Shown: piece after piece, positions 4,697 through 58,614 of the stretch
How the letters are laid out: every line of letters begins with the position of its first letter
How positions within the stretch are numbered: position 1 is the first letter of the stretch
From: a virus
DNA: 64,000 nt
Strand: one strand, 5' to 3'
IMG/VR virus record: IMGVR_UViG_3300045988_103986
Coordinates: 1-64,000 of that record
Translations under genes and position numbers: made by a program
The notes under the pieces: generated by a model
Database searches by the model: none
What the model saw: only the letters and a program-made list of their open reading frames with translations
Told to the model about the DNA's origin: nothing

Positions 4697-5368
4697 TCAT
4701 CTGCAAAAGTACATTCCGTCCTGATAAACTACGATCTCAGTCCCCTGTATGTTTTCCGACTGGAAAATCACGTCATCAGGAAGGAGCTTTTCTCCGAGCA
4801 ATACACGTTCGGCGCAGCGATATGCGCGCTCAACGGCATCTTTTTCCTCCGGGTTCGATGCTCTGTCTTTCCAAACAACACCGGTTCTGTCGAACACGTT
4901 GTACTGAAGCGGCTGCGTCAGCACTTCTTCCATGGTGTTTGGATATCTGGGGTCATTCATGCGGTTCAAAATCACATTTCCGACCATGATACGAGTTTCG
5001 TCGCTGCAGTCGTCCCCGCCAGCTTCAGCGTAAATTGCTCGTGCCAAAAGCTCTAAGTCATATGGGTCATCTGTGATAAACCCGCCGTTTCCACCAACAC
5101 CATCTTTCGTATGAGGTGGATGGCAGAACTGCGAATCGTCAAAAGCTTCTTCGTCATCCGCTTCCTGCGGGGCCTCCTGAATCGTTTCCTCCGGTTCTTC
5201 CGGGTCTTCCGGTTCATTCAGCGATTCTTGACTTGCGGCAGCCCTCGTAGCGTCCACCTCGGATGCTGCCTGATTTGCAAGCGCTTGCTCAATGCCACTC
5301 TGAAAAATTAGAAGCGTAACCGATATGAGGACGAGGATCACGCAGACACAGAAAAGGAATTTTCTCAT
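4697..5368 (-). CDS. secreted cell-wall hydrolase, SleB/CwlJ (Hydrolase_2) family
   Basis: N-terminal signal anchor, acidic linker, then LLARAIYAEAGGD...VGNVILNRMNDPRYPNTMEEVLTQPLQY core. Confidence 0.75.
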   Translation of the reverse strand: MRKFLFCVCVILVLISVTLLIFQSGIEQALANQAASEVDATRAAASQESLNEPEDPEEPEETIQEAPQEADDEEAFDDSQFCHPPHTKDGVGGNGGFITDDPYDLELLARAIYAEAGGDDCSDETRIMVGNVILNRMNDPRYPNTMEEVLTQPLQYNVFDRTGVVWKDRASNPEEKDAVERAYRCAERVLLGEKLLPDDVIFQSENIQGTEIVVYQDGMYFCR

Positions 5369-5775
5369 GCTACCGGGCCTCCTTCTCTGGCTTCTGCAGT
5401 AAGAAGCTTTTGCTTCGCTCTGTAATATTGGCTATTTTGAGCGGACAGCCCTGGATGCGCTGCGTAGTATGCACGTTTCTTGGCTTTGATCTCTTCCGCG
5501 TGCTCTGCGTAGTAGCGAAGATTATACTCGCGTCGGTCCCGGTTCTTTTCACGTTCTGCACGACGTTCGGCAGCTTTCCCGTCGTACCAGCCAATGTGTT
5601 TGTAGCTCGCTTTGTAGCAGCTTTGACAGCAGTAGTAAGTAACCGCTTCCTTCTTTCCATCCCGTTCAATCATTCTCATAAACGGTGAACCTGCGCTCGT
5701 AACTACCATCTGGCCGCATGTTCCGCATGGACGGATGATCGTCAATCGACGGTCAGTCTTTTTTCTTACACTCAT
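5365..5775 (-). CDS. hypothetical zinc-finger/coiled basic protein, ~136 aa
   Basis: CGTCGQ...CCQSC motifs; start uncertain because the longer ORF overlaps the upstream gene. Confidence 0.45.
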   Translation of the reverse strand: MSVRKKTDRRLTIIRPCGTCGQMVVTSAGSPFMRMIERDGKKEAVTYYCCQSCYKASYKHIGWYDGKAAERRAEREKNRDRREYNLRYYAEHAEEIKAKKRAYYAAHPGLSAQNSQYYRAKQKLLTAEAREGGPVA

Positions 5776-6265
5776 ATTGCTGTACCAACCGTTCAAGGTA
5801 GAACTGTGCTTTTTTGAGGTCTTCCACCGGCTTTCCCTTGAACGGATGCCGCCAGATGTACTTGACTGTCTGCCACGCCAATACCGCCGATACCGGGTCG
5901 GACCATCCTTCAACCATCGCATTCAGGGCGTCGATGCACTCAATGGAGCCTTGGCAATAGTGCGTCGGATGATCTACGAAATTTTCAGCCGGTTTTTCGT
6001 CTGCGTCCTGATTCATAAATGCGTTGACCTGCGCCATTGGCTTTTTAGCTGGTGCAGGGAGAACCATTTCCTGATTCCAGCATTTCTCACAGAGTTCTGC
6101 ACTTGCTTTAGACGTTCCACTACACATTTCAAGCGGGAAACTACACATTTCAAGCGGAACAGGAAGAATATCTCTATATGCGTGTGGGCAATAACGTATT
6201 CCACCGTAGCAGCTTTTGTTTTCCGCGCCCGGTTCCATTTTCAGCACAAATTCTCTCTGTGTCAT
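5753..6265 (-). CDS. DUF3310-like phage protein
   Basis: DHPTHYCQGSIECIDAL...KYIWRHPFKGKPVEDLKKAQFYLERL signature; ATGA overlap at the start. Confidence 0.65.
   Translation of the reverse strand: MTQREFVLKMEPGAENKSCYGGIRYCPHAYRDILPVPLEMCSFPLEMCSGTSKASAELCEKCWNQEMVLPAPAKKPMAQVNAFMNQDADEKPAENFVDHPTHYCQGSIECIDALNAMVEGWSDPVSAVLAWQTVKYIWRHPFKGKPVEDLKKAQFYLERLVQQYECKKKD
6119..6157 (-). repeat. in-frame 21-bp tandem duplication inside the DUF3310-like gene
   Basis: ACTACACATTTCAAGCGG at 6119-6136 and 6140-6157, encoding PLEMCSF/PLEMCSG. Confidence 0.85.
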
Positions 6266-21616: not shown

Positions 21617-22139
21617 CGGTTTTACTTCGAATAGTTTTAAAAACTCCACGTTTCACACGAAACGCCGAACTTATAGTGCAGCTTCGCCGAACCGCAGCCG
21701 CTACCCACCTGCTACCTATCTCAAATATTTTTTCTTACCGTCCGTAGGACACCTGCTTCGTTGCCGTAAGGCAACCGCGCAAATTTTTATTTTTGGGGTA
21801 TGCCCCTATTCGATTCCAATTTTTTGCCCCAGGTTTGGAAAATACCCCCCTCCCCCTATGCTGCATATAAAAAGAAAGCGCCGGCCGAAGCCGACGTCGT
21901 ATGTTCTTCATTATGTGTCCGTGCAGGAGCCATCTCCCTTCGGGGTTTTGAGCCAAGGCAGGGATTGCAGGGGCTTTTTCTATTGATGAGCGGTTTTTCT
22001 TGGCTTGGGGTGTCGAGGTGTGGAACGCCTGGGCGGGAGGAAGTGCTATACCCTGTTCTGAAAATTGGGGCGCTCCTGGACTTGTAAAATGGGGGGTATC
22101 CTGCAAACCGTGGCGGGAATCCTGCATTTCTCGCCGGGT

Positions 22140-22172
22140 GTCGTTTCCTTTACTACCTGTAAAGGAAACGAC
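22140..22172. other. perfect 14-bp-stem hairpin / inverted repeat in an ORF-free tract
   Basis: GTCGTTTCCTTTAC tacct GTAAAGGAAACGAC. Confidence 0.8.
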
Positions 22173-22713
22173 AACGGGGTTATTTTGCAAGATTTCCGTC
22201 ATAACTTGCAAGAATGCGCACTTTGGGCGGTCGTTTGTGTGACACGTCCGGCCCGGCGGGCTTGGCTGTCGGTCAGGGGCTGACGCGAGAACCGGCAGGG
22301 GCTGGGGCTTTGCCCGGAAGTTGCCGCCTGAACAGACGGACGCCGGGGACACTTTCCCCGTCCCCGTTGTGCTGGGTCCTTGCGTTGGTGAAGATGATCT
22401 GTTTGATGGGGTGCGGCTGTGTTGGTTGGTGTCCTGTGGTGCCGGGCTGGTAGGTGGTGCAGGTGGTGGAGCTGGCTGGGATGAAGCTATGCTATAGTGT
22501 ACTATAGAACGCCTGGGCAAACAACGCACGCGCACGCATGACGCGCGGGCACGCATACGCGACGCGGGCGCACGCGCGCGCGTATATAATATAGAGTGGC
22601 GGTGGGAGCATGTGCGGGGCGTGGTGAGGCTGTGCGGGGCTGTGGCGGGGTGATGGATAGGGCTGCGGGGCTCTGGTGACGTGCTAGGGGCTGCGCGTGC
22701 CCTGCGTAGGCGG

Positions 22714-23436
22714 TTAAGCCTGCGCAAGGTAGCGGGCGCGGATCTTATCGATTCGGCGCTGTATTGTGCTCTTGCTGGTGCCAAGGGCTGCAGCAATGGT
22801 GCGGACGGTGTGCCCGTCTGCCAGTGCGCGGACGATCCGCCGGTCGAGCTCGTCGACGGCTGCGGCCTCGATCGCGGCGCGGGTGATGGCTGAATCTTCG
22901 GGGCTGGTGATGGGGGCGGCGGTGACGCTGGGCAGCATATCAACTATACTCTGTGCGTTGTCGTCGCCGTCGTTGTTGTATCTGTTGTCTGGGATTTGGC
23001 AGCAATTCGACGTGTGGCGGTACTCGCTGCGGGCGATGACGTGCGCGGCCTGGGTGCAAGCGGCGTACAGGATATGGGACAACGGGCGCGGCTCGCCGCT
23101 CTGCTCGTTGCGGGTGAGGGCAGGGGCAACGCGGGGCCATGCGTCAGCGGCGACGGTCTGCGCGTCGTCCGGGCATTTGATCCACGCGGTATCTGCTGCG
23201 CGTCCGGTGGCCTCGGCGCGGTGCTTGACGGTCCACGACATGCGGATCAGTGCGGTAAACTGGGCTTCTCCGTCCATGTTGTCCCACTCGCGGCGGGCTG
23301 CTGTGGCGGCTTGGGCGGCTCTGTGCGCCTCTTTCAGGCAGATGGCAAACTGTGCGCGGCTGCGCGTCTCTGGGAACTCTGCGACGGTGGCGCGGTACAG
23401 GCTCCACGCCTGCCGCATGATCTGTGCTTTACTCAT
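22714..23436 (-). CDS. HTH DNA-binding protein with a sigma-70 region-4/LuxR-like C-terminus
   Basis: C-terminus DELDRRIVRALADGHTVRTIAAALGTSKSTIQRRIDKIRARYL; GC-rich codon usage unlike the flanks. Confidence 0.55.
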   Translation of the reverse strand: MSKAQIMRQAWSLYRATVAEFPETRSRAQFAICLKEAHRAAQAATAARREWDNMDGEAQFTALIRMSWTVKHRAEATGRAADTAWIKCPDDAQTVAADAWPRVAPALTRNEQSGEPRPLSHILYAACTQAAHVIARSEYRHTSNCCQIPDNRYNNDGDDNAQSIVDMLPSVTAAPITSPEDSAITRAAIEAAAVDELDRRIVRALADGHTVRTIAAALGTSKSTIQRRIDKIRARYLAQA

Positions 23437-23485
23437 GGGTACGATCTCCTTTATTCGTTTTATTTGATGGGGCGGCTGGTGTGCG

Positions 23486-23761
23486 TCAGCCTGCCGGGGT
23501 TGCGTCGATGACTGCGGGGCCGGAAAACGTCAGCTGCACGCGGTCGCCTCTGCGGTAGTCTCCGGTATCGGTGTACCATGTCCAGCACTCGCCGCGCGTG
23601 TCCTCGCCGGTTACGGCGTCCGTGTCGGCGCTGACGCGCTCCACTGCTACGATCTGGGCCGGTGCGGTGTCCGTTGCCTGTTGTCCCTGCTTGGGGCTTG
23701 TGCAGGCGGTCAGGGCGGCCAGAAGGGCCGCCGCGCCTGTGATGATCTGTATCCGCTTCAT
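23486..23761 (-). CDS. lipoprotein, 91 aa
   Basis: Start MKRIQIITGAAALLAALTAC (lipobox LTAC) behind GGAGAGGAG. The longer 155-aa ORF is Arg-rich nonsense. Confidence 0.6.
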   Translation of the reverse strand: MKRIQIITGAAALLAALTACTSPKQGQQATDTAPAQIVAVERVSADTDAVTGEDTRGECWTWYTDTGDYRRGDRVQLTFSGPAVIDATPAG

Positions 23762-23991
23762 GTTTTGCTCTCCTCTCCGACGGTGAACTCTCCGGCCCAT
23801 GCGCGGATGATTGATCCGGCCTCGGTCACGGCGGTGATCCAGCCGCTGACGTTCGCGGCCTTGCGGCAGCGGATGACGTGCCCGCGTCCGGCGTTGTAGT
23901 CGATTCGCAGGCCCTCGGCGGCTGCGGCGCGGATCTCGGCGGGCGTGTGCCATTGCGGGCGGTCCGTGGGACTAATGTTGATTGGTAGCAT
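23758..23991 (-). CDS. hypothetical protein, 77 aa
   Basis: ATGA overlap with the lipoprotein gene. Confidence 0.45.
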   Translation of the reverse strand: MLPINISPTDRPQWHTPAEIRAAAAEGLRIDYNAGRGHVIRCRKAANVSGWITAVTEAGSIIRAWAGEFTVGEESKT

Positions 23992-24003
23992 GATATTCTC
24001 CTT

Positions 24004-24234
24004 TCAGTTCTCGGTGAAGTACCGGCGCAAGGTGGAATCTTCCGGGCTTTCTGAATCCAGCCACGCATTAAACGCGCTGGGGTTGCGCTTTTCGAGTTCA
24101 TCCATGATCCAGCCGCGCGTGATCGTGGTTTCCGGTGATGTGCTGAGGAATTCCGTTGTTTCCCACGCTTTCAAAAGCTGTTCGTTTGTCAGTTTGGCGA
24201 TGATTGCCGGGGCTGGTGCGGTTTCGTGTTTCAC
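24004..24234 (-). CDS. hypothetical protein, 76 aa
   Basis: GC-rich island ORF. Confidence 0.5.
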   Translation of the reverse strand: MKHETAPAPAIIAKLTNEQLLKAWETTEFLSTSPETTITRGWIMDELEKRNPSAFNAWLDSESPEDSTLRRYFTEN

Positions 24235-24290
24235 TGTTCAAACTCCTTTCAGGTTGTCCCGGCGGCGTGTGCCGCCGGGGTGGTTGGTGA

Positions 24291-25049
24291 TTAAATGATG
24301 TACAGGGTGCCGTTGATCTCGGCGCTCACTGCTTCCTGCTGCATTTCTGCTTTGATCTGCTGGGCCAGCGTCAGCACGTCCGGCAGGCGTTCGCGGAGCT
24401 GGTCGGCGGTGCAGGCCGCGTAAACGATGGTCACGGCCTCGCGGATCAACCCGGCGGAATCGCTCAGCCAGTAGCCCGCGCTCGGTTGGGCGGTTGCGCC
24501 GCCGAACCAGCCGCAAAACTCGCGGGCGACGCGTTCAACCTGCGCGGCGTTGTCGGTGGCGTGGTTGATGTCCTGCGTGCCGGGGACGTAGAGCGCGACG
24601 CGCTGCGGGAGCTCCAGCGCGCCCGCCTGCTTCATGATCTCGGCGGTGTCCTGCGCTTCCTGCGCGGGTGCTTCCTGCTCCTGCGGCGCGGGCGGCGCGT
24701 ACTTGCTCATAGCCTGCGCAAGCTGGTTGATGTGCGCGGGGTGGATTTCTGCGGGCTGGTAGATGTTCTTTGCTTCCAGCTCGTCACGGGTCGCGGCGGT
24801 CTCGATGGTGGCGGCCCACTCGCGGGAGCTGGGCCATATTCTGCCGTCCCACTCGCCGACGGTGTTCACGATTTCAGCGATTGCTTCGCGGGCGGTATCG
24901 TATCCGATCTGCTCCACGATAGCGGCGACGGTCTCGGCGGGGGTCCGGTCGCTGGTTTCGCTGTAGATGTTTACCACGGTTTTGATGTTCGCGCGGGTGG
25001 TCTTGATCTGCTCGCGGCGGGCGGTGATCTCGGTTGCATTCATTTTCAT
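24291..25049 (-). CDS. hypothetical protein, 252 aa
   Basis: First gene of the leftward island operon, divergent from the RHH gene. Confidence 0.6.
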   Translation of the reverse strand: MKMNATEITARREQIKTTRANIKTVVNIYSETSDRTPAETVAAIVEQIGYDTAREAIAEIVNTVGEWDGRIWPSSREWAATIETAATRDELEAKNIYQPAEIHPAHINQLAQAMSKYAPPAPQEQEAPAQEAQDTAEIMKQAGALELPQRVALYVPGTQDINHATDNAAQVERVAREFCGWFGGATAQPSAGYWLSDSAGLIREAVTIVYAACTADQLRERLPDVLTLAQQIKAEMQQEAVSAEINGTLYII

Positions 25050-44564: not shown

Positions 44565-45653
44565 GTGGCGTTCCCAAATGGATATGAAAAGTTCCGCGAA
44601 GCGATGATTGCTTACGAAGACAACCTGAGAGCGATCGGGCGCGCAGAAACAACAATCGAAAACGAAGAGCGGATTTTCAAATACTTCTCCGGCTTCATGC
44701 TGGAAAATGGCCGGTGGGACAAGCGCGAAGAGAGTTTCATAGACATTCAGGCGTGGCGAGACCAGCTGCGGCGTGACGGGAAAAAGCCGTCGACAATTAA
44801 GCAGTATCTGAAAGTTCTGAGCAGCTTCTACAAGTTCGCCTCTTCCGCGCAGCTCGGAGACAAGCGCTGGTACGATCAGAATCCCGTTGGTGCCCTACTT
44901 TTGCCGGACACCAAAAAGCGGGACAAGCGCCCATATGACGAACTTCTCACAGACGAGCAAGTTCTTCTCCTGTGGCGGAACAATCCTCCGCAAAAGCTCA
45001 GACGGCCAGAATATTGGGAGCGGAATTACGCCATCGTCGTTCTGCTGCTGACTACAGAGATCCGCAACAGGGAGCTTCTGGCGCTCACGCCGAGCGACCT
45101 GGACTGGGAAAACTCAGAGCTGATCGTCGATCATGGCAAGGGTGATAAATACAGGTCCGTGGACTTCCCTCTCCTCGCGCAAACCGCCATGCGGATTTAT
45201 CTGAATAGTGGAATCCGACCAGAGACTGCAGGAGACCATGACCCGCTCTTTGGGACAGAGGCAACCAGAGACTTTCAGGGAGCCAACAAAGGCGCGGAGT
45301 GGCACGCAGGGACGCGACAGTGGCTCTCAAACGTGGTCCGGCGTCATGTGAAATCCGTAACCGGTGTAGATGATATCCGATCTCACGACCTGCGGCACAT
45401 CGGTGCGCGGCTTGACCTGAACAGCGGGATGAGCATTGAGGAACTGCAGTCAAAACTTGGGCATGAGTCAGTTTCAACAACACAGATCTATTCCGGCAAA
45501 CTCACCAGCCGCAAGAAGCGACGCATGACAAAGATAGTGCTGGAAGAAAAAGACCGTCAAGCTCAAAGAAATATCGAACGTTTGGAGGTTAACGGAGATA
45601 ATTTTTTCGGGCAGCTCCGGTTGAAGCAATTCCAGCAGCCGGAGACAGCGTAG
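44565..45653 (+). CDS. int: tyrosine recombinase/phage integrase (GTG start)
   Basis: N-terminal SAM-like domain; catalytic region NRELLAL...HGKGDKYR...IRSHDLRHIGA...LGHESVSTTQIY. Confidence 0.9.
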   Translation: MAFPNGYEKFREAMIAYEDNLRAIGRAETTIENEERIFKYFSGFMLENGRWDKREESFIDIQAWRDQLRRDGKKPSTIKQYLKVLSSFYKFASSAQLGDKRWYDQNPVGALLLPDTKKRDKRPYDELLTDEQVLLLWRNNPPQKLRRPEYWERNYAIVVLLLTTEIRNRELLALTPSDLDWENSELIVDHGKGDKYRSVDFPLLAQTAMRIYLNSGIRPETAGDHDPLFGTEATRDFQGANKGAEWHAGTRQWLSNVVRRHVKSVTGVDDIRSHDLRHIGARLDLNSGMSIEELQSKLGHESVSTTQIYSGKLTSRKKRRMTKIVLEEKDRQAQRNIERLEVNGDNFFGQLRLKQFQQPETA

Positions 45654-45749
45654 GCAAAACCAAGAGAACCAAGAAAACGAACAGTCAGAAGGCCAGCGGT
45701 AAAAACCAAGAAAACTAAAACTCTCCGGGTTCCGTTCAACCCGGTACAC

Positions 45750-45817
45750 GATGGGAGCAGGTGCGCGGGATAGCTCACGACCATACCGTATCGGTTCGAA
45801 TCCGATTCCCACCACCA
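45750..45817 (+). other. truncated tRNA-like element (68 nt, good T-arm/acceptor/CCA, no canonical D/anticodon arms); attP-core candidate
   Basis: GATGGGA...GCGGGATAGCTCA...ATCGGTTCGAATCCGATTCCCACCACCA, ~100 nt downstream of int. Confidence 0.45.
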
Positions 45818-46007
45818 GCCGCAGTTTTTTCATTTGTTTTCCTGCGGCACGGCATATGGCCTCCTTTCTGATAAAGAAAAGCGTCACCCACGTAAGCGCA
45901 GACGCTCGCTGGAACATGTTAGAGATTCCGGTGCTCTGATTTGAGAAGATCAGCTGTGGGTTTCGGTCAAGAGCGCACCCGAAGCCGTGTAAAACGGGGT
46001 GCAGCAC

Positions 46008-46081
46008 CCAGCATTGGTGTAGCGGTAGCACATCAGTCTTCCAAACTGAGAGCGCGAGTTCGAGTCTCGTATGCTGGTCCA
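46008..46081 (+). tRNA. tRNA-Gly (anticodon UCC)
   Basis: Hand-folded cloverleaf: acceptor CCAGCAT/ATGCTGG, D-arm GTGT-AGCGGTA-GCAC, anticodon arm TCAGT-CTTCCAA-ACTGA, T-arm GCGAG-TTCGAGT-CTCGT, encoded CCA. Confidence 0.65.
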
Positions 46082-47943: not shown

Positions 47944-48233
47944 GATACCATCCGAGTTTGGCTAGTTCGCACAAGCGTTCCGCTGTGTAGAAAATCGGAA
48001 CCCATGAAAGTCCTCGTTGCGCTGGTACGCCAAACACAACAGCGCGGGCAAAAATCGTTGGTGAATATCGCGCGTAACACGCAACGTTGACTGCTGTTCA
48101 ATAATTCGGGAAACAGACAAAGAGCAGGCTTGGTTAAAGGCTCATAGTGCGGTGACCAGGAAACAGCCCACAAGCCCCTGCCTTTAGGCATGGGGTAAAG
48201 GGCTGCAAGTCTACTTATTGTTGGAGATGAAAC

Positions 48234-49346
48234 ATGGGATATTCCTACAAATTTAGGCTGTACCCAAATACGGAGCAGGAGAACTTAATACAGCGTACTT
48301 TCGGCTGTGCTCGATTTGTGTATAACCACTTTCTCTCTGAACGCATCACGCAGTATCGAGAAACCGGGAAATCTCCTACACGTTTTCAACAGGACAAAGA
48401 ATTGACGCAGCTGAAGAAATCGGTTGAGTGGCTGAAAGAGGTTGATGCAACCGCACTGCAATCTTCTTTGCAGAGCCTTGATGCCGCCTATCAGAACTTC
48501 TTCCGTCGAGTGAAATCCGGTGAAAAGCCAGGATTCCCACGGTTCAAGAGCAAGCATGACCACCGCAAAAGCTACAAGAGCAAAGCCGTTGGAACAAACA
48601 TCAAAGTATTGGACGGTGCGGTCCAACTGCCGAAACTCGGCAAAGTCAAATGCCGTATCAGCCGAAAGGTTGAGGGCAGAATCCTGTCTGCTACGGTATC
48701 ACAAAATCCGAGCGGCAAATACTTTGTATCGCTCTGCTGCACTGATGTGGAGATTGAGCCGCTTCCAAAGACAGGCTGTGTTATCGGCGTTGACATGGGG
48801 CTGAAAGCATTCGCAATCACGTCCGATGGAACGGAATATCCAAACCCGCGTTATTTAGCCAAGAACCAGAAGAAACTTGCCAGATTACAACGGCAACTCT
48901 CCCGAAAATCAAAGGGGAGCAACCGACGCGAGAAAGCGAGGATTCAGGTGGCGCGGTTACATGAGCACATCGCAAGCCAGCGCAGCGACATGATGCACAA
49001 GCTGTCAACGCAGCTCATCCGGGAGAACGATGTAGTCTGCATCGAAGACTTAGCACCGAAGAACATGGTCAAGAATCATCGCCTTGCGAAGTCCATCAGC
49101 GACGCATCGTGGGGCGAGTTCAGGCGGCGGCTAGAGTACAAGGCCGCGTGGTATGGAAAGAAAGTCATAGCGATAGACCGGTTCTTCCCATCCAGTCAGC
49201 TATGTTCCTGCTGCGGGTATCGGAATACCGGAACAAAGAATCTAGCGGTGCGGGAGTGGACGTGCCCCAAATGCGAAACACACCACGACAGGGACATCAA
49301 CGCCGCGAAAAACATTTTAAGTGAGGGCTTGCGCCTGTTGGCCTAG
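48234..49346 (+). CDS. tnpB: RNA-guided endonuclease TnpB
   Basis: [12 protein letters not shown]-terminus; RuvC triad contexts [23 protein letters not shown]; zinc finger CSCCG...CPKCE. Confidence 0.9.
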
Positions 49347-49471
49347 CCAAAACACACGGTAGGGCGGGACACGCCCGAACCTATACGCTCGTGGAGACTA
49401 TGTAAGACGCAACTACGGCGCAACGGTCAGCGAACCGAGAATCCCCCGGCTTTAGCCGTGGGGAGTGTCAA
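49347..49471 (+). ncRNA. omega-RNA scaffold / right end of IS copy B
   Basis: Conserved in all three copies: TAGGGCGGGACACGCCCGAA ... GAGAATCCCCCGGCTTTAGCCGTGGGGAGTGTCAA, with hairpins GGGCG/CGCCC and CCGGCT/AGCCG. The 5' limit inside tnpB is not determinable. Confidence 0.6.
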
Positions 49472-49511
49472 AGGTTGGTTCGGCGGGACGCCGCTGCATG
49501 AGCCTGCATAC

Positions 49512-49588
49512 AGGGGTATCGCCAAGCGGTCTAAGGCATGGGACTTTGACTCCCATATGCGCAGGTTCAAATCCTGCTACCCCTGCCA
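49512..49588 (+). tRNA. tRNA-Gln (anticodon UUG)
   Basis: AGGGGTA-TC-GCC..GGC-A-TGGGA-CTTTGAC-TCCCA-TATGC-GCAGG-TTCAAAT-CCTGC-TACCCCT-G-CCA. Confidence 0.8.
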
Positions 49589-50244
49589 GCCGCCCGTTGG
49601 GGTTCTCCGCGCGACTACATTTAACATGGGGAAAAATACGGCTATCCATTCACGCACGCAATAGAGTGATCGTGAATCGTAGCGGCCCCGGCTAAAGGCG
49701 CTGTACCCGCGGCGTCCAAGGAGAACGAGGCAAAAATGCAGCTATATGGGCCAGAAAACGGGATAGTAGCCACGCTGCAATATATGATGGTGCTACGAAG
49801 CTGTAGACGATGAACGCCTGGTAATACAGGACGGCTCAGCCGATAATGAATGAGTAAGATAGCGTCTACGGAAATAGGAGCTGTAGTAAATGGAGTGAAA
49901 TTAACAGCCATCATATCCCCTGCGCTTGATGCGTGGGCTGCCGAAACCAATGCGTGTTTCGGCCAAAAAGGTAAAGGTCAAGCGGATATAGACCTTCGTA
50001 GAGACGGCACAAGTCCATTTTGGAACGTCCCGTTCAGCTTGCCGGGAAAGACTCACTAGTGGTCGAACTGGATGAATCCGCACTTGTTCGTAATGCTTGG
50101 GGCGAACTGAAATCCGCCAAGCTAGGCAGCACCTTTGGGAACGCTTTCAGGACTGCTGATACATAAGCGCCGGTGCGCAACCACCTAATTTGCCGTTGGT
50201 TTGCGCGCAAAACCTCACGTCCGGTACGTTAAGCCGGGATTGAT
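49589..50244 (+). ncRNA. candidate large structured ncRNA (GOLLD/ROOL-class hypothesis)
   Basis: 655-nt ORF-poor spacer between two tRNAs with at least 7 helices, e.g. 49602-08/49720-26, 49648-54/49671-77, 49803-09/49863-69, 49941-47/49956-62, 50095-100/50117-22. Confidence 0.35.
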
Positions 50245-50319
50245 GGGCCGTTAGCTCAACGGTAGAGCAAGCCGCTCATAACGGCTCGGTCGTAGGCTCG
50301 ACACCTACACGGCCCACCA
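50245..50319 (+). tRNA. tRNA-Met/Ile2 (anticodon CAU) with an atypical T-loop
   Basis: GGGCCGT-TA-GCTC-AACGGTA-GAGC-A-AGCCG-CTCATAA-CGGCT-CGGTC-GTAGG-CTCGACA-CCTAC-ACGGCCC-A-CCA. The T-loop is CTCGACA instead of TTCRAWY. Confidence 0.7.
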
Positions 50320-50346
50320 TTCATTCTTGAGAAAGGAGGATTACAC

Positions 50347-50622
50347 ATGAACAAGGAAGAACTCGTTCAGGCAGTTGCCAGCAAGACCAACATGCCGAAG
50401 ACCGCCAGTTTGGAGGCCATCGATGCCGTTTTCGCAGCAATCGAAGAATCTCTCATTGCGCACGAAGATGTCACTATCGCTGGTTTCGGCAAGTTCACTG
50501 CGAAGTACCAGAAGGCCAGAACCGCGAGAAACCCGGTCACGGGTGGACCGGTCGACGTTCCGGCAAAATTCTCGGTCAAGTTCTCGGCAAGCAGCGTGCT
50601 GAAAAAAGCAGTTGCAAAGTGA
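50347..50622 (+). CDS. hup: HU-family DNA-binding protein
   Basis: MNKEELVQAVASKT...IAGFGKFTAKYQKARTARNPVTGGPVDVPAK. Confidence 0.9.
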   Translation: MNKEELVQAVASKTNMPKTASLEAIDAVFAAIEESLIAHEDVTIAGFGKFTAKYQKARTARNPVTGGPVDVPAKFSVKFSASSVLKKAVAK

Positions 50623-50678
50623 ATCATGGGGCTATTTTGCCCCTCTACATAGTAAAATCACAGAAAGGATGCAATTTC

Positions 50679-51224
50679 ATGTTAGATATCAAGATCCATC
50701 GCGGCGATATTTTCTGGATTCGTCAGGACTATAGTGCCGTTGGCTCCGAGCAAAAAAAGAATCGTCCGGCGATCATTGTCAGCAACGACAAAAATAATAC
50801 ATATTCCGAAACTGTAGAGATTGTTTATCTCACAACCGCTGAGAAAAAGCCCATGCCAACACACGTTGCTATCGAAACGATGGGCAAGCAGTCTACTGCA
50901 CTTTGCGAGGCCATCTACACAATCGATAAGGAACGCTTGGAGAACTACTACTGTACATTAACGACCGAGGAAATGAAACTCGTTGACCAGGCTGTTCTCG
51001 TCTCCTTGGGGCTTACGGCCCCCCCTATTTGTACCGTAGCCGCATCACAAGAGCCAGAACCCGAAAAGGTCTGTGTTCCGATCAACCCGCCATTTGGTTT
51101 GGAAGATGCACTCCGCGCAGTGCAGAAGGAACGCGATACACTGCTTGCGCAGAAGGAGATCTACGAGAAAATCTGTGCCGCCGCACTGCCGCGTTGGCCG
51201 AAGGAGGTTGAGTTGGGCGCATGA
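50679..51224 (+). CDS. PemK/MazF-family toxin domain with a ~70-aa C-terminal extension
   Basis: IHRGDIFWIRQDYSAVGSEQKKNRPAIIVSNDKNN...VEIVYLTTAEKKPMPTHVAI. Confidence 0.7.
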   Translation: MLDIKIHRGDIFWIRQDYSAVGSEQKKNRPAIIVSNDKNNTYSETVEIVYLTTAEKKPMPTHVAIETMGKQSTALCEAIYTIDKERLENYYCTLTTEEMKLVDQAVLVSLGLTAPPICTVAASQEPEPEKVCVPINPPFGLEDALRAVQKERDTLLAQKEIYEKICAAALPRWPKEVELGA

Positions 51225-57510: not shown

Positions 57511-58614
57511 CTACGCCATTAGGCGCATTCCTTCGTGCAAAATGTTCTTCGCGGCGTTGATGTCCCGATCATGACGCGTCCCACATTTGGGGCACGTCCA
57601 CTCCCGCACCGCCAGATTCTTTGTGCCGATGTTCCGATATCCGCAACAGGAGCATAGCTGGCTGGAAGGGAAGAAACGGTCTATCTGTATGACCTTTTTC
57701 CCATACCACGCGGCTTTGTATTCTAACTGCCGTCGGAACTCGCCCCATGATGCGTCGCTGATGGACTTCGCAAGGCGATGGTTCTTGACCATGTTCTGCG
57801 GTGCTAAGTCTTCGATGCAGACTACATCGTTCTCCCGGATGAGTTGCGTTGACAGTTTGTGCATCATGTCGCTGCGCTGGTTTGTGATATGCTCATGCAG
57901 CCGTGCCACCTGAAGCCTCGCTTTCTCGTGCCGGTTGCTCCCCTTTGGTTTTCGGGAGAGCAGCCGTTGTAGTCTGGCAAGTTTCTTCTGGCTCTTGGCT
58001 AAATAACGCGGGTTTGGATATTCCGTTCCATCTGACGTAATTGCGAATGCTTTCAGCCCCATATCAACGCCGATAACACAGCCTGTCTTTGGAAGCGGCT
58101 CAATCTCCACATCAGTGCAGCAGAGCGATACGAAGTATTTCCCGCTGGGATTCTGAGATATCGTGGCCGATAAAATGCGCCCTTTGACTTCCTTTGAAAC
58201 CCGACACTTGACATGTCCCAACTTTGGAAGCTGGACTGCATTTTCAAAAATCTTGATGTTGCAATTCGTCGTGTAACTCTGTCTATGGTCGCGCTTGCTT
58301 TTGAACTTTGGAAAACCGGGCTTCTCACCGTTCTTTACTCGGCGAAAAAAGTTCTTATATGCAGCGTCCAAGTATTTCAGCGCATTTTTTAAAGCGCACT
58401 TATCTGGTTCTTGTAGCCATTCGAGTTCCTTTTTTAGTGCAGTGAGTTCCTTGTCCTGCTGAAAACGTGTAGGAGATTTCCCAGTTTCTCTATACTGCGC
58501 GATACGCTCAGCGAGAAAGTAGTTATACACAAACCGGACACATCCGAAAGTGTGCTGTATTAAGTTTCTCTGAGCCGAATTTGGGTACAGCCTAAATTGA
58601 TAGGAATATTCCAT
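57511..58614 (-). CDS. tnpB: RNA-guided endonuclease TnpB (diverged paralog of 48234-49346)
   Basis: [11 protein letters not shown]; [23 protein letters not shown]; by eye very similar at the protein level to copy B. Confidence 0.9.

Follow-up and report, generated by a model that had tools for sequence, protein, structure and literature searches.

Two tRNA genes and the spacer between them

The window, the whole stretch of 64,000 nucleotides (nt) analyzed here, encodes helicase/methyltransferase, tail, Hoc-like, and endolysin proteins and is clearly of phage origin. Within it, a spacer of 656 nt (49589-50244) is bracketed by the genes for tRNA-Gln (UUG anticodon; 49512-49588) and tRNA-Met (CAU anticodon; 50245-50319), both on the + strand, and holds no credible gene. 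Both tRNAs were identified by ARAGORN and by the tRNA model of Rfam (scores of 64.8 and 62.6 bits, respectively), at the coordinates assigned to them in an initial annotation of this DNA. That annotation had placed the interval correctly between the tRNAs but gave its length as 655 nt. It was also right in finding no credible ORF; a 69-aa frame is, however, not the only one present, and four more are listed (102, 60, and 58 aa on the minus strand and 48 aa on the plus strand).

Coding potential of the spacer was rejected on several grounds. A Pfam search with the spacer ORFs gave no match. The antisense ORFs lack a ribosome-binding site; from one homologue to another their start shifts and their size ranges over 57-152 aa. 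The 69-aa frame is interrupted in many homologues by a 68-nt indel at 49950/49951. Moreover, 17 distinct DNA versions of the central domain described below yield 13-15 distinct peptides in all six frames, and therefore show no synonymous bias. An apparent Shine-Dalgarno sequence followed by an AUG (49718-49738) was dismissed as not conserved, the AUG being replaced by GCG in L011, L021, and L022.

The neighbouring genes all lie on the + strand. Upstream of tRNA-Gln, an IS605-type element ends at about 49471. A TnpB guide RNA (omega RNA) of this element was considered and rejected because the spacer lies outside it, and relatives without the element (L004, L005, L009, and others) retain the full RNA. 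Downstream, an HU gene with its own ribosome-binding site begins 27 nt past tRNA-Met. A scan of 49300-50350 found no promoter-like or terminator-like site on the + strand.

Homologous spacers and their conservation

Homologous spacers were compared in 38 distinct versions of 359-981 nt, all from contigs of ~100 kb that form a single clade of human-gut phages. Five additional divergent versions, from other gut phages, were recovered with the hairpin next to tRNA-Met (50221-50237) as bait. In INPHARED cultured phages, blastn down to about 65-70% identity matched the tRNAs alone. Among relatives of the HU protein, identity drops from 80% to 45% with nothing between, and the 44 unrelated loci reached through this protein contain no match to a covariance model built on the central domain.

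A motif from the 5' region and a 20-mer from the central domain were also used in exact-match scans of 185,579 species genomes, which detect a motif as written; no true bacterial copy of either was found. Three matches to the 20-mer in Streptomyces and Sphingomonas were confined to the 20-mer itself and were attributed to chance, as was a match in L085. The endolysin in the window is closest to those of human faecal phages, a Blautia phage, and a Monoglobales phage. The earlier assignment to a prophage of Firmicutes is supported only in part: the phage origin is clear from the proteins, and the exact scans gave no bacterial copy.

The core blocks of the spacer have a mean pairwise identity of 0.93-0.99, and 85% of the columns in the central block are invariant. 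For comparison, the two tRNAs reach 0.96-0.98, and the flanking HU and MazF genes 0.92-0.945 at codon positions 1 and 2 and 0.79-0.81 at position 3. Conserved like the tRNAs and above the flanking coding positions, the core blocks are under selection at the nucleotide level.

Predicted fold of the spacer RNA

Folding of the single sequence gives a minimum free energy of -214.1 kcal/mol on the + strand, where shuffles give -211.6 ± 7.7 (z -0.33); results for the minus strand (z -0.95) and the minimal 359-nt version (z 0.13) are similar. As the single-sequence fold is no better than that of shuffles, the structural evidence rests on comparison. Across the region (49589-50244, + strand), the RNAalifold consensus has 138 pairs, which are 98.4% paired and include 15 with compensatory changes. 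Its covariation score of 0.118 was reached by 0 of 500 shuffles, with slid controls at or below 0.024; shuffle controls overstate significance where sequences are related, and part of the structures was derived from the same alignments used to test them. Main-clade sequences are 79-99% identical, so that many covariation events are shared by descent, and most of the covariation comes from few lineages. An unbiased all-against-all test of column covariation in the main clade was dominated by noise, its members being too alike.

In the predicted fold, a 7-bp helix closes the 5' domain and a 10-bp helix closes the middle domain, which contains a freely exchangeable arm; a loop-to-tail pseudoknot locks the central domain, and a 3' domain follows. 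The 5' domain (49602-49726), supported by consensus folding (z -3.9 against column shuffles on the + strand), is closed by GUUCUCC/GGAGAAC (49602-08/49720-26), invariant in 21 of 21 sequences. It carries a variable arm, V1 (49615-49690; mean pairwise identity 0.71), of which two unrelated sequence types exist, each predicted as an extended stem-loop. Next to it lies the hairpin GGCGCUG/CGGCGUC (49697-49716), which is 100% paired; a G-C pair is replaced by U-A in two sequences, G·U alternates with G-C in nine, and an additional A-U to G-C change was seen by eye in the L164 type. A hairpin domain at 49738-49778, found by comparison, follows with an invariant outer helix (GCAGC/GCUGC) and an inner helix (GGC/GCC) that shows G·U alternation.

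The middle domain (49782-49916; consensus folding z -5.8 on the + strand) is closed by the 10-bp helix AUAUGAUGGU/GCCAUCAUAU. Inside it, the hypervariable arm V2 (about 49792-49890) has at least nine unrelated variants of 53-436 nt. Both variable arms are exchanged for unrelated sequences, and complementary ends still close the arm in most variants; for V2 these ends are GCUAC/GUAG, GCCG/CGGC, and GCUGUA/UACAGC from the alignment and CAG/CUG from folding. Two hairpins follow. CCUGCGC/GCGUGGG (49919-49937) is 100% paired, with one-sided compatible changes in two pairs, and is found also in the divergent locus L160. CCGAAAC/GUUUCGG (49941-49962) alternates between A-U and G·U (10 versus 9 sequences); many relatives have a structured expansion of 68 nt at its tip and fold as a three-way extension.

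The central domain (49971-50081) was modelled from 15 sequences, including five divergent lineages. It comprises 30 pairs, which are 98.7% paired and of which 10 have compensatory changes; its covariation score of 0.303, against 0.186 for shuffles, was reached by 0 of 500. It has four helices (49974-79/49991-96, 49998-50007/50030-38, 50042-45/50068-71, and 50050-53/50061-64). The pseudoknot, between 49982-87 and 50076-81, is 100% paired in three covarying versions (GCGGAU/AUCCGC, GUGUCU/GGACAC, and GUGACU/AGUCAC). Within the main clade alone, consensus folding of this domain gives a z of only -0.8, so that its support comes solely from the divergent homologues; an RNAalifold model from the main clade alone was replaced by the model that these homologues back. 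The covariance model R1 finds a single copy in the window (49965-50075, 129 bits). In three lineages, the same columns of the loop at 50054-60 hold ACUAGU, GCGCGC, or ACGCGU, each of them self-complementary; in three main-clade variants the ACUAGU palindrome is broken (ACUAAU).

The 3' domain is 94.9% paired with five compensatory pairs, and fits two more pseudoknots before ending in two conserved hairpins. In the first proposed pseudoknot (50086-50122), GUUCG/CGAAC (50086-90/50103-07) is 78.9% paired in MAFFT columns, with a U-A to C-G swap seen by eye in a GCUCG/CGAG variant, and GCUUGG/CCAAGC (50095-100/50117-22) is 97.7% paired. In the second (50125-50171), an outer helix of GGCAG/CUGCU and CCU/AGG (50125-34/50149-57), 99.1% paired with two compensatory pairs (GGAAG/CUUCC and GGAGG/CCUCC), would be crossed by GG..CGCUU/AAGCGCC (50138-46/50165-71), 97.4% paired with one compensatory pair. 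The first terminal hairpin, GGUUU[GCGCGCA]AAACC (50198-50214), has three of five stem pairs covarying; in L167 the stem is GGCCA/UGGCC and the loop is unchanged. Its self-complementary loop (50203-08) reads GCGCGC or GUGCAC; in the L160 type, the loop retains only CCGG. The GC-rich loop could alternatively form intramolecular pairs, with either 49608-13 or 50173-80; the local hairpin, whose stem covaries, was preferred to a pairing of 50173-80 with 50201-08. The last hairpin, CCGG[UACGUUAAG]CCGG (50221-50237), lies 7 nt upstream of tRNA-Met and is invariant in 10 of 10 lineage representatives, divergent ones included. A predicted long-range helix (49727-30/50213-16), which would link the 5' and 3' halves, is also invariant.

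Six complementary segments had been noted before the comparison, and all exist and fit this picture. Besides the 7-bp closing helix, the 49941-49962 hairpin, and the 50095-100/50117-22 stem, they are 49648-54/49671-77 and 49803-09/49863-69, both within lineage-specific variable arms, and 49976-79/49991-94, which belongs to a 6-bp helix in which three pairs are compensatory.

The G·U patterns favour an RNA read from the + strand. In the alignments 379 cells hold G·U against 4 with A·C, and 30 pairs alternate between Watson-Crick and G·U against 4 for A·C. Consensus folding favours the same strand in the 5' domain (z -1.3 on the minus strand) and the middle domain; in the 3' domain it favours the minus strand (z -4.3 versus -3.0).

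These results bear on a group of readings in which no functional RNA is made: a non-functional spacer (for example, decayed tRNA genes), a DNA-level element (for example, palindromic protein sites), or a hidden small protein gene. The single-sequence folding energy would suit the first, but no tRNA-like match lies in the spacer. The loop palindromes ACTAGT, GCGCGC, GTGCAC, and ACGCGT could be DNA sites of a dimeric protein. Against both a spacer and a DNA element stand conservation above neighbouring coding positions, helices kept by compensatory changes, and a G·U asymmetry that points to + strand RNA. On the minus strand, one frame stays open through the central domain, but the protein gene it might represent has no synonymous-substitution pattern, ribosome-binding site, or Pfam match. 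As a group, these readings are considered highly improbable. Testing homologous spacers for conservation and covariation, as had been suggested, thus gave conserved core blocks and compensatory pairs, and the structured non-coding RNA gene originally proposed for this phage tRNA cluster is supported as conserved, compensated, and non-coding.

Known large RNAs and the proposed explanation

To our knowledge, very few bacterial or phage RNAs longer than 500 nt have elaborate conserved folds; they include rRNAs, group II introns, GOLLD, ROOL, and OLE. The Rfam 15 covariance models gave no match in the spacer when the 64-kb window was searched at gathering thresholds. Searches at E<=10 of 1.9 kb and of 671 nt, the latter with lax filters, gave no match to ROOL or GOLLD, and 11 homologous loci at E<=5 had no match to ROOL, GOLLD, or another large RNA family. 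No match was obtained with the models for OLE, HEARO, raiA, group I and II introns, RNase P, tmRNA, 6S, or T-box, and ARAGORN found no tmRNA. The sole sub-threshold match in the spacer was to s2m (14 bits, minus strand, E=6.5, in the 671-nt search). Literature searches found no description of the spacer RNA.

ROOL (RF03087) has an average length of 581 nt and occurs in phages and prophages, often beside tRNA genes (Weinberg et al., 2017, PMC5737381). The spacer RNA, at 656 nt and between tRNA-Gln and tRNA-Met, resembles it in size and in its phage-encoded tRNA neighbours. ROOL has several pseudoknots, and the spacer RNA one that covaries and two proposed; both have an internal region poorly conserved among homologues, and neither has a known protein partner. 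However, the consensus sequences and helices of the spacer have no alignable counterpart in ROOL, and entire domains are optional in the spacer RNA. With GOLLD (RF01998) it shares the phage tRNA island, one studied GOLLD lying downstream of a tRNA-Met. In both, conservation is higher in one part than in the rest, and extra genes may sit in a variable linker: tRNAs in the case of GOLLD and, for the spacer RNA, a small insert with an ORF in L009. The spacer RNA is shorter, many GOLLD members exceeding 800 nt, and its best-conserved parts are the central domain and the 3' terminal hairpin.

The initial annotation had suggested that the spacer encodes ROOL or GOLLD, a suggestion that no Rfam covariance-model match, at any threshold tried, bears out. 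A very divergent member of either family could share the niche, the length close to the ROOL average, the several pseudoknots, and the hypervariable internal region, and still have been missed by the Rfam models; given the lack of matches even at E<=10 (671 nt, lax filters) and at E<=5 in the 11 homologues, this is scarcely credible. The other outcome foreseen, a new phage-borne structured RNA, agrees with the absence of any model match. As judged from sequence comparison, the candidate RNA is, relative to Rfam, a new family of the kind formed by large structured RNAs in phage tRNA islands. A survey of IMG/VR described 8,495 candidate structured RNAs of 29-151 nt (average 67 nt; Fremin et al., 2023, PMC10690425). 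It shares source data with the present work (IMG/VR viral contigs, human-gut phages); compared by description only, none of its candidates is a multi-domain RNA of 0.6 kb; the survey could include single hairpins of the spacer or its central domain of ~110 nt.

The observations as one are probably best explained by a large, modular, pseudoknotted non-coding RNA gene outside Rfam, whose product would be processed with the tRNAs and serve as a self-associating scaffold. Since no promoter-like or terminator-like site was found on the + strand and all neighbours lie on that strand, co-transcription of the RNA with tRNA-Gln and tRNA-Met, within the tRNA operon of the phage, is probable. The RNA would then be excised by ordinary tRNA processing, its 5' end arising from 3' maturation of tRNA-Gln and its 3' end from the RNase P cut at the 5' end of tRNA-Met.

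It had also been called a giant RNA, a term to be used with caution, as the element is modular. Some relatives retain only 359 or 441 nt, and these versions lack the central domain; it is absent from L008 and L011. L076 is without the central and 3' domains; its 5' half is joined to a different 3' part and then to other tRNAs. L159, L160, L165, L167, and L168 lack the 5' domain, and the remainder of the 3' domain is substituted in L160, L165, L167, and L168. In divergent phages, the central domain and the terminal hairpin are retained and combined with other upstream modules. Among all versions located before tRNA-Met, only the 3' terminal hairpin is common to every one. Naturally occurring deletions and domain swaps of this kind, in versions of 359 to 981 nt, show which parts can be dispensed with.

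Domains are thus gained, lost, and swapped between phages, and none is universal, which fits several separate units as well as one large RNA. The spacer might accordingly be a tandem array of structured RNAs of about 110-200 nt each (5', middle, central, and 3'), co-transcribed with the tRNAs, cut apart, and acting independently of one another. Besides the independent losses and exchanges, this reading could account for the right-hand boundary at ~50085/50086 shared by both deletion variants, and for the closing helix or pseudoknot that every domain has of its own. However, no tRNA-like element within the spacer marks internal processing points, and the scan revealed no + strand promoter-like or terminator-like site there. 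Domain order is constant wherever domains co-occur in the main clade, and in GOLLD and ROOL, too, a single RNA includes parts that vary or are dispensable (PMC12286853, PMC5737381). A tandem array is therefore possible but unlikely. A further reading takes the hairpins as cis-acting processing or regulatory signals (such as RNase entry sites or stabilisers) for the tRNA-Met/HU/MazF unit, with no free RNA. The terminal hairpin, a few bases 5' of tRNA-Met in every lineage, and the closely following HU gene with its own ribosome-binding site would fit; about 600 nt with a covarying pseudoknot and two proposed ones exceed what processing signals need, and the blocks are conserved above codon positions 1 and 2. 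This reading is given little chance.

Under the preferred reading of one large RNA, the least certain step is what the molecule would do. In two hairpin loops, self-complementary hexamers persist from lineage to lineage, a hint of self-association through these palindromes; in the mechanism judged most likely, the scaffold would bind its own copies through them. The HIV-1 dimerisation initiation site is a self-complementary kissing-loop hairpin with GCGCGC or GUGCAC in its loop. The hairpin at 50198-50214 offers the same hexamers in a loop of 7 nt above a stem that covaries, and the loop at 50054-60 has other 6-nt palindromes; the resemblance is one of form only, and any dimerisation of the spacer RNA is hypothetical. 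ROOL forms an RNA-only homo-oligomeric nanocage, and ROOL, GOLLD, and OLE assemblies are held by kissing loops (PMC12286853); by analogy, a self-associating scaffold would resemble these RNA-only assemblies. A more specific proposal is a third independent family of large tRNA-island RNAs, forming, as ROOL and GOLLD do, a protein-free symmetric multimer through two kissing loops per monomer (50054-60 and 50203-08), with the hypervariable arm at 49792-49890 as the counterpart of the disordered internal linker in ROOL and GOLLD; it is put forward as rather doubtful. If it were true, RNA-only assemblies would be a recurrent phage invention rather than two oddities.

An unrelated further family in the tRNA-island niche would in itself provide a third case for comparison, and long "empty" spacers in phage tRNA clusters merit inspection. 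In related phages, a second ORF-poor spacer of 0.85-1.2 kb lies between tRNA-Pro and tRNA-Gln.

A conserved non-coding spacer in a phage tRNA operon

The interval 49589-50244 (656 nt) lies between genes for tRNA-Gln(UUG) (49512-49588, +) and tRNA-Met(CAU) (50245-50319, +), both called by ARAGORN and the Rfam tRNA model. Comparison among related phages argues strongly that this spacer of the tRNA operon encodes a conserved + strand RNA with a predicted pseudoknotted fold. Relatives were recovered through the neighbouring HU protein and exact DNA motifs. The same interval was found in about 30 contigs from IMG/VR and in 35 from human-gut metagenomes in ENA or JGI, mostly 50-120 kb. These yielded 38 distinct versions of 359-981 nt, with 79-99% identity to the window in shared columns, except for the chimeric locus L076 (70%). 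None of the INPHARED cultured phages carries the spacer, and two exact-motif scans of bacterial species genomes gave no meaningful match. Baits from the 3' end retrieved five more distant versions (L159, L160, L165, L167, and L168) from other gut phage contigs in which the HU gene is different. These have the central domain (49971-50081) and a terminal hairpin (50221-50237) immediately upstream of tRNA-Met; their upstream modules differ, as does the 3' domain in four of the five.

The initial annotation had described a single ORF in the spacer. This was inexact, as mechanical ORFs of 102, 60, and 58 aa (minus strand) and 69 and 48 aa (plus strand) are present; none has a Pfam match. Protein coding is excluded: in each of six frames, 17 distinct central-domain DNAs translate into 13-15 different peptides, the antisense ORFs differ in start and length among phages and have no ribosome-binding site, and indel lengths are not multiples of three.

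Mean pairwise identity across 23 aligned loci is 0.98 for tRNA-Gln and 0.96 for tRNA-Met. Within the spacer it reaches 0.99 (49589-49614), 0.93 (49691-49783), 0.96 (49968-50084, with 85% invariant columns), and 0.93 (50166-50244), and falls to 0.71, 0.76, and 0.82 in the variable arms 49615-49690, 49784-49916, and 50085-50165. For codon positions 1/2/3 the values are 0.92/0.945/0.81 in the HU gene (50347-50622, +), downstream of tRNA-Met, and 0.92/0.93/0.785 in MazF. Since the identity of the core blocks exceeds that of HU and MazF codon positions 1 and 2, constraint on them is stronger than on the amino-acid-determining positions of neighbouring genes. Conserved blocks with hypervariable arms between them form the kind of mosaic that structured RNAs show.

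Searches with Rfam 15 (4,227 covariance models) returned tRNAs only in the whole window at gathering thresholds, in 1.9 kb (E<=10), and in 11 homologous loci (E<=5). With the laxest filters (671 nt, E<=10), the one further match was to s2m, at 14 bits and on the wrong strand. The earlier proposal of ROOL or GOLLD thus found no covariance-model match in any of these searches. Within the reach of covariance models, this rules out both families as well as OLE, HEARO, raiA, group I/II introns, RNase P, and tmRNA. The spacer RNA resembles ROOL and GOLLD in setting, size class, pseudoknot content, and its hypervariable internal region, but it lacks a match to either family's covariance model, their one testable defining feature. 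No description of it was found in the literature; pieces of it may be listed among the 29-151-nt candidates that a 2023 study predicted from IMG/VR (PMC10690425). Compared with Rfam 15 models, it would represent a new family among the large phage tRNA-island RNAs, a type of element already known. Such RNAs are very few, and this one offers naturally occurring deletions and swaps as well as a direct test by experiment.

Covariation and predicted pseudoknots

All six complementary segment pairs listed in the initial annotation were found in the spacer. The lone window sequence folds no better than chance (-214.1 kcal/mol versus -211.6 ± 7.7 for dinucleotide shuffles, z -0.33; minus strand z -0.95). 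RNAalifold on 21 versions gave 138 consensus pairs, with 98.4% of cells paired. Fifteen pairs are compensatory, whereas shuffles average 9.4 and none of 500 attains 15, and the covariation score is 0.118 versus 0.079 for shuffles and <=0.024 for slid controls, in a lenient test whose structure was derived from the alignment it was tested on. Against column shuffles, consensus folding gave z -3.9 (+) versus -1.3 (-) for the 5' domain (49602-49726) and -5.8 versus -3.2 for the middle domain (49782-49916); the 3' domain (-3.0 versus -4.3) does not discriminate the strands. In this folding test the central domain by itself, within the main clade, is not significant (z -0.8).

The strongest structural evidence comes from the central domain aligned with its divergent homologues (15 sequences), where 10 of 30 predicted pairs have compensatory changes and 98.7% of cells are paired. 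Its covariation score is 0.303 versus 0.186 for shuffles (0/500), with slid controls at <=0.136. Three pairs change in hairpin 49974-79/49991-96 and two in hairpin 50050-53/50061-64. Moreover, loop 49982-87 of the former pairs with tail 50076-81 in every cell, as GCGGAU/AUCCGC, GUGUCU/GGACAC, or GUGACU/AGUCAC; the domain is thus closed by a predicted pseudoknot that covaries. A covariance model built from this domain matched the window exactly once, at 49965-50075 (129 bits), and had no match in 44 unrelated phage loci.

The 3' domain (22 sequences) fits two H-type pseudoknots (50086-50122 and 50125-50171) and three hairpins. Here 94.9% of cells are paired, five pairs are compensatory, and the covariation score was reached by 0/500 shuffles; MAFFT misaligned some variant columns, so the count for two helices is too low. 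Consensus helices contain 379 G·U cells versus 4 A·C, and G·U/Watson-Crick alternation occurs at 30 pairs versus 4 for A·C. This asymmetry is supportive of a + strand RNA, though not independent, as the structure was predicted on that strand.

Modularity and possible self-association

No domain is universal among the versions. L008 (359 nt) has the 5' and 3' domains only, L011 (441 nt) has these plus the middle domain, and the divergent group lacks the 5' domain. Both deletion variants, L008 and L011, share a right-hand boundary at ~50085/50086. In L076 (437-920, on a 1.2-kb metagenome contig) the 5' half runs into an unrelated 3' segment, and the next genes are tRNA-Leu and tRNA-Thr where other versions have tRNA-Met; either a natural domain swap or chimeric assembly may account for this. 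For the arm at 49792-49890 there are at least nine versions without mutual similarity (53-436 nt), most of them closed by complementary ends (GCUAC/GUAG, GCCG/CGGC, and GCUGUA/UACAGC by alignment; CAG/CUG by fold). In L009 (about 4918-5898; also in L040) the arm carries a 365-nt insert with its own 73-aa ORF, RBS, and AT-rich upstream region; the match of this ORF to an MqsA-like zinc ribbon is weak and below threshold (E 1.6e-5, 25.5 bits versus a cut-off of 30). In about half of the phages, the tip of hairpin 49941-62 is enlarged by a structured expansion of 68 nt. Variable or dispensable regions are also found in GOLLD and ROOL (PMC12286853, PMC5737381).

Such modularity fits a multi-domain RNA that gains and loses accessory domains just as well as a series of separate RNAs cut from a common transcript. 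The single RNA is favoured as the probable reading and the separate RNAs are the less likely one, as ARAGORN and Rfam scans found no tRNA-like elements inside the spacer, a consensus scan of 49300-50350 found no + strand promoter-like or terminator-like sites, and domain order is fixed. Helix 49727-30/50213-16, the only predicted tie between the halves, is invariant.

From standard tRNA biology, the RNA would be co-transcribed with tRNA-Gln and tRNA-Met, then freed when RNase P cuts at tRNA-Met and the 3' end of tRNA-Gln matures. Two of its hairpin loops contain self-complementary hexamers. At loop 50054-60 most of the main clade has ACUAGU, four divergent lineages have GCGCGC, and L167 has ACGCGU, three distinct palindromes at the same columns above a covarying stem. 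Loop 50203-08 reads GCGCGC or GUGCAC; in L167 the loop, GCGCGCA, is unchanged although the stem is wholly different (GGCCA/UGGCC). Self-complementary loops are a classical route to RNA kissing dimers. Kissing loops hold together the ROOL, GOLLD, and OLE assemblies (PMC12286853). Because of these two precedents, self-association into a multimeric scaffold is proposed, as a doubtful possibility by analogy. Counting against it, three main-clade variants have ACUAAU, and in the L160 type the 3' loop retains no more than CCGG; intramolecular pairing of the GC-rich loop is also conceivable, or the palindromes could be DNA sites.

Phage surroundings

The gene content of the window is that of a phage (helicase/methyltransferase, tail protein, Hoc-like proteins, endolysin). 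The nearest relatives of the endolysin are from human faecal phages and a Blautia and a Monoglobales phage, which fits, and leaves unproven, a Gram-positive gut host. A tyrosine recombinase (phage integrase family) at 44565-46081 is followed ~350 nt on by tRNA-Gly(UCC); no bacterial-genome copies of the two scanned RNA motifs were found, so integration is unconfirmed. After HU, all on the + strand, come genes for a MazF/PemK-like protein, a class-V aminotransferase, and an HTH protein. The first (50619-51224) encodes 201 aa with the toxin domain at residues 28-128 and an additional C-terminal region; its start overlaps the HU gene end, and no obvious antitoxin gene adjoins it.

Upstream of the spacer, a TnpB gene (48234-49346, +) encodes OrfB_IS605, Cas12f-like TNB, and HTH domains within a mobile element that spans ~48157-49471 by comparison with relatives. 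A TnpB guide RNA was rejected as an identity for the spacer, because several relatives without the element retain the spacer. The element, missing from several related phages, ends ~40 nt before tRNA-Gln, and beside this right end the window lacks a ~1.1-kb stretch that bears tRNA-Pro in relatives. A second IS605-type TnpB copy lies at 57511-58614 (-), and the two proteins are 84% identical.

A G+C-rich island at 22000-25000 (0.62-0.66 versus ~0.50 elsewhere) coincides with a GC and AT skew switch, which is probably a change of gene orientation. Overlapping ORFs lie on both of its strands, one of them with an HTH at the C terminus, and it contains CGCG-rich short tandem repeats (22524-22582).

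Between tRNA-Pro and tRNA-Gln, related phages carry another long spacer (~0.85-1.2 kb; L090 740-1596), with no window counterpart. Its ORFs are only short and overlapping, and it may hold another non-coding RNA. Upstream of tRNA-Pro in two relatives, sub-threshold tRNA-Sec-like matches (cut-off 47) occur at L097 1243-1325 (44 bits) and L111 552-634 (39 bits), and may be long-arm tRNAs or tRNA-like elements uncalled by ARAGORN.
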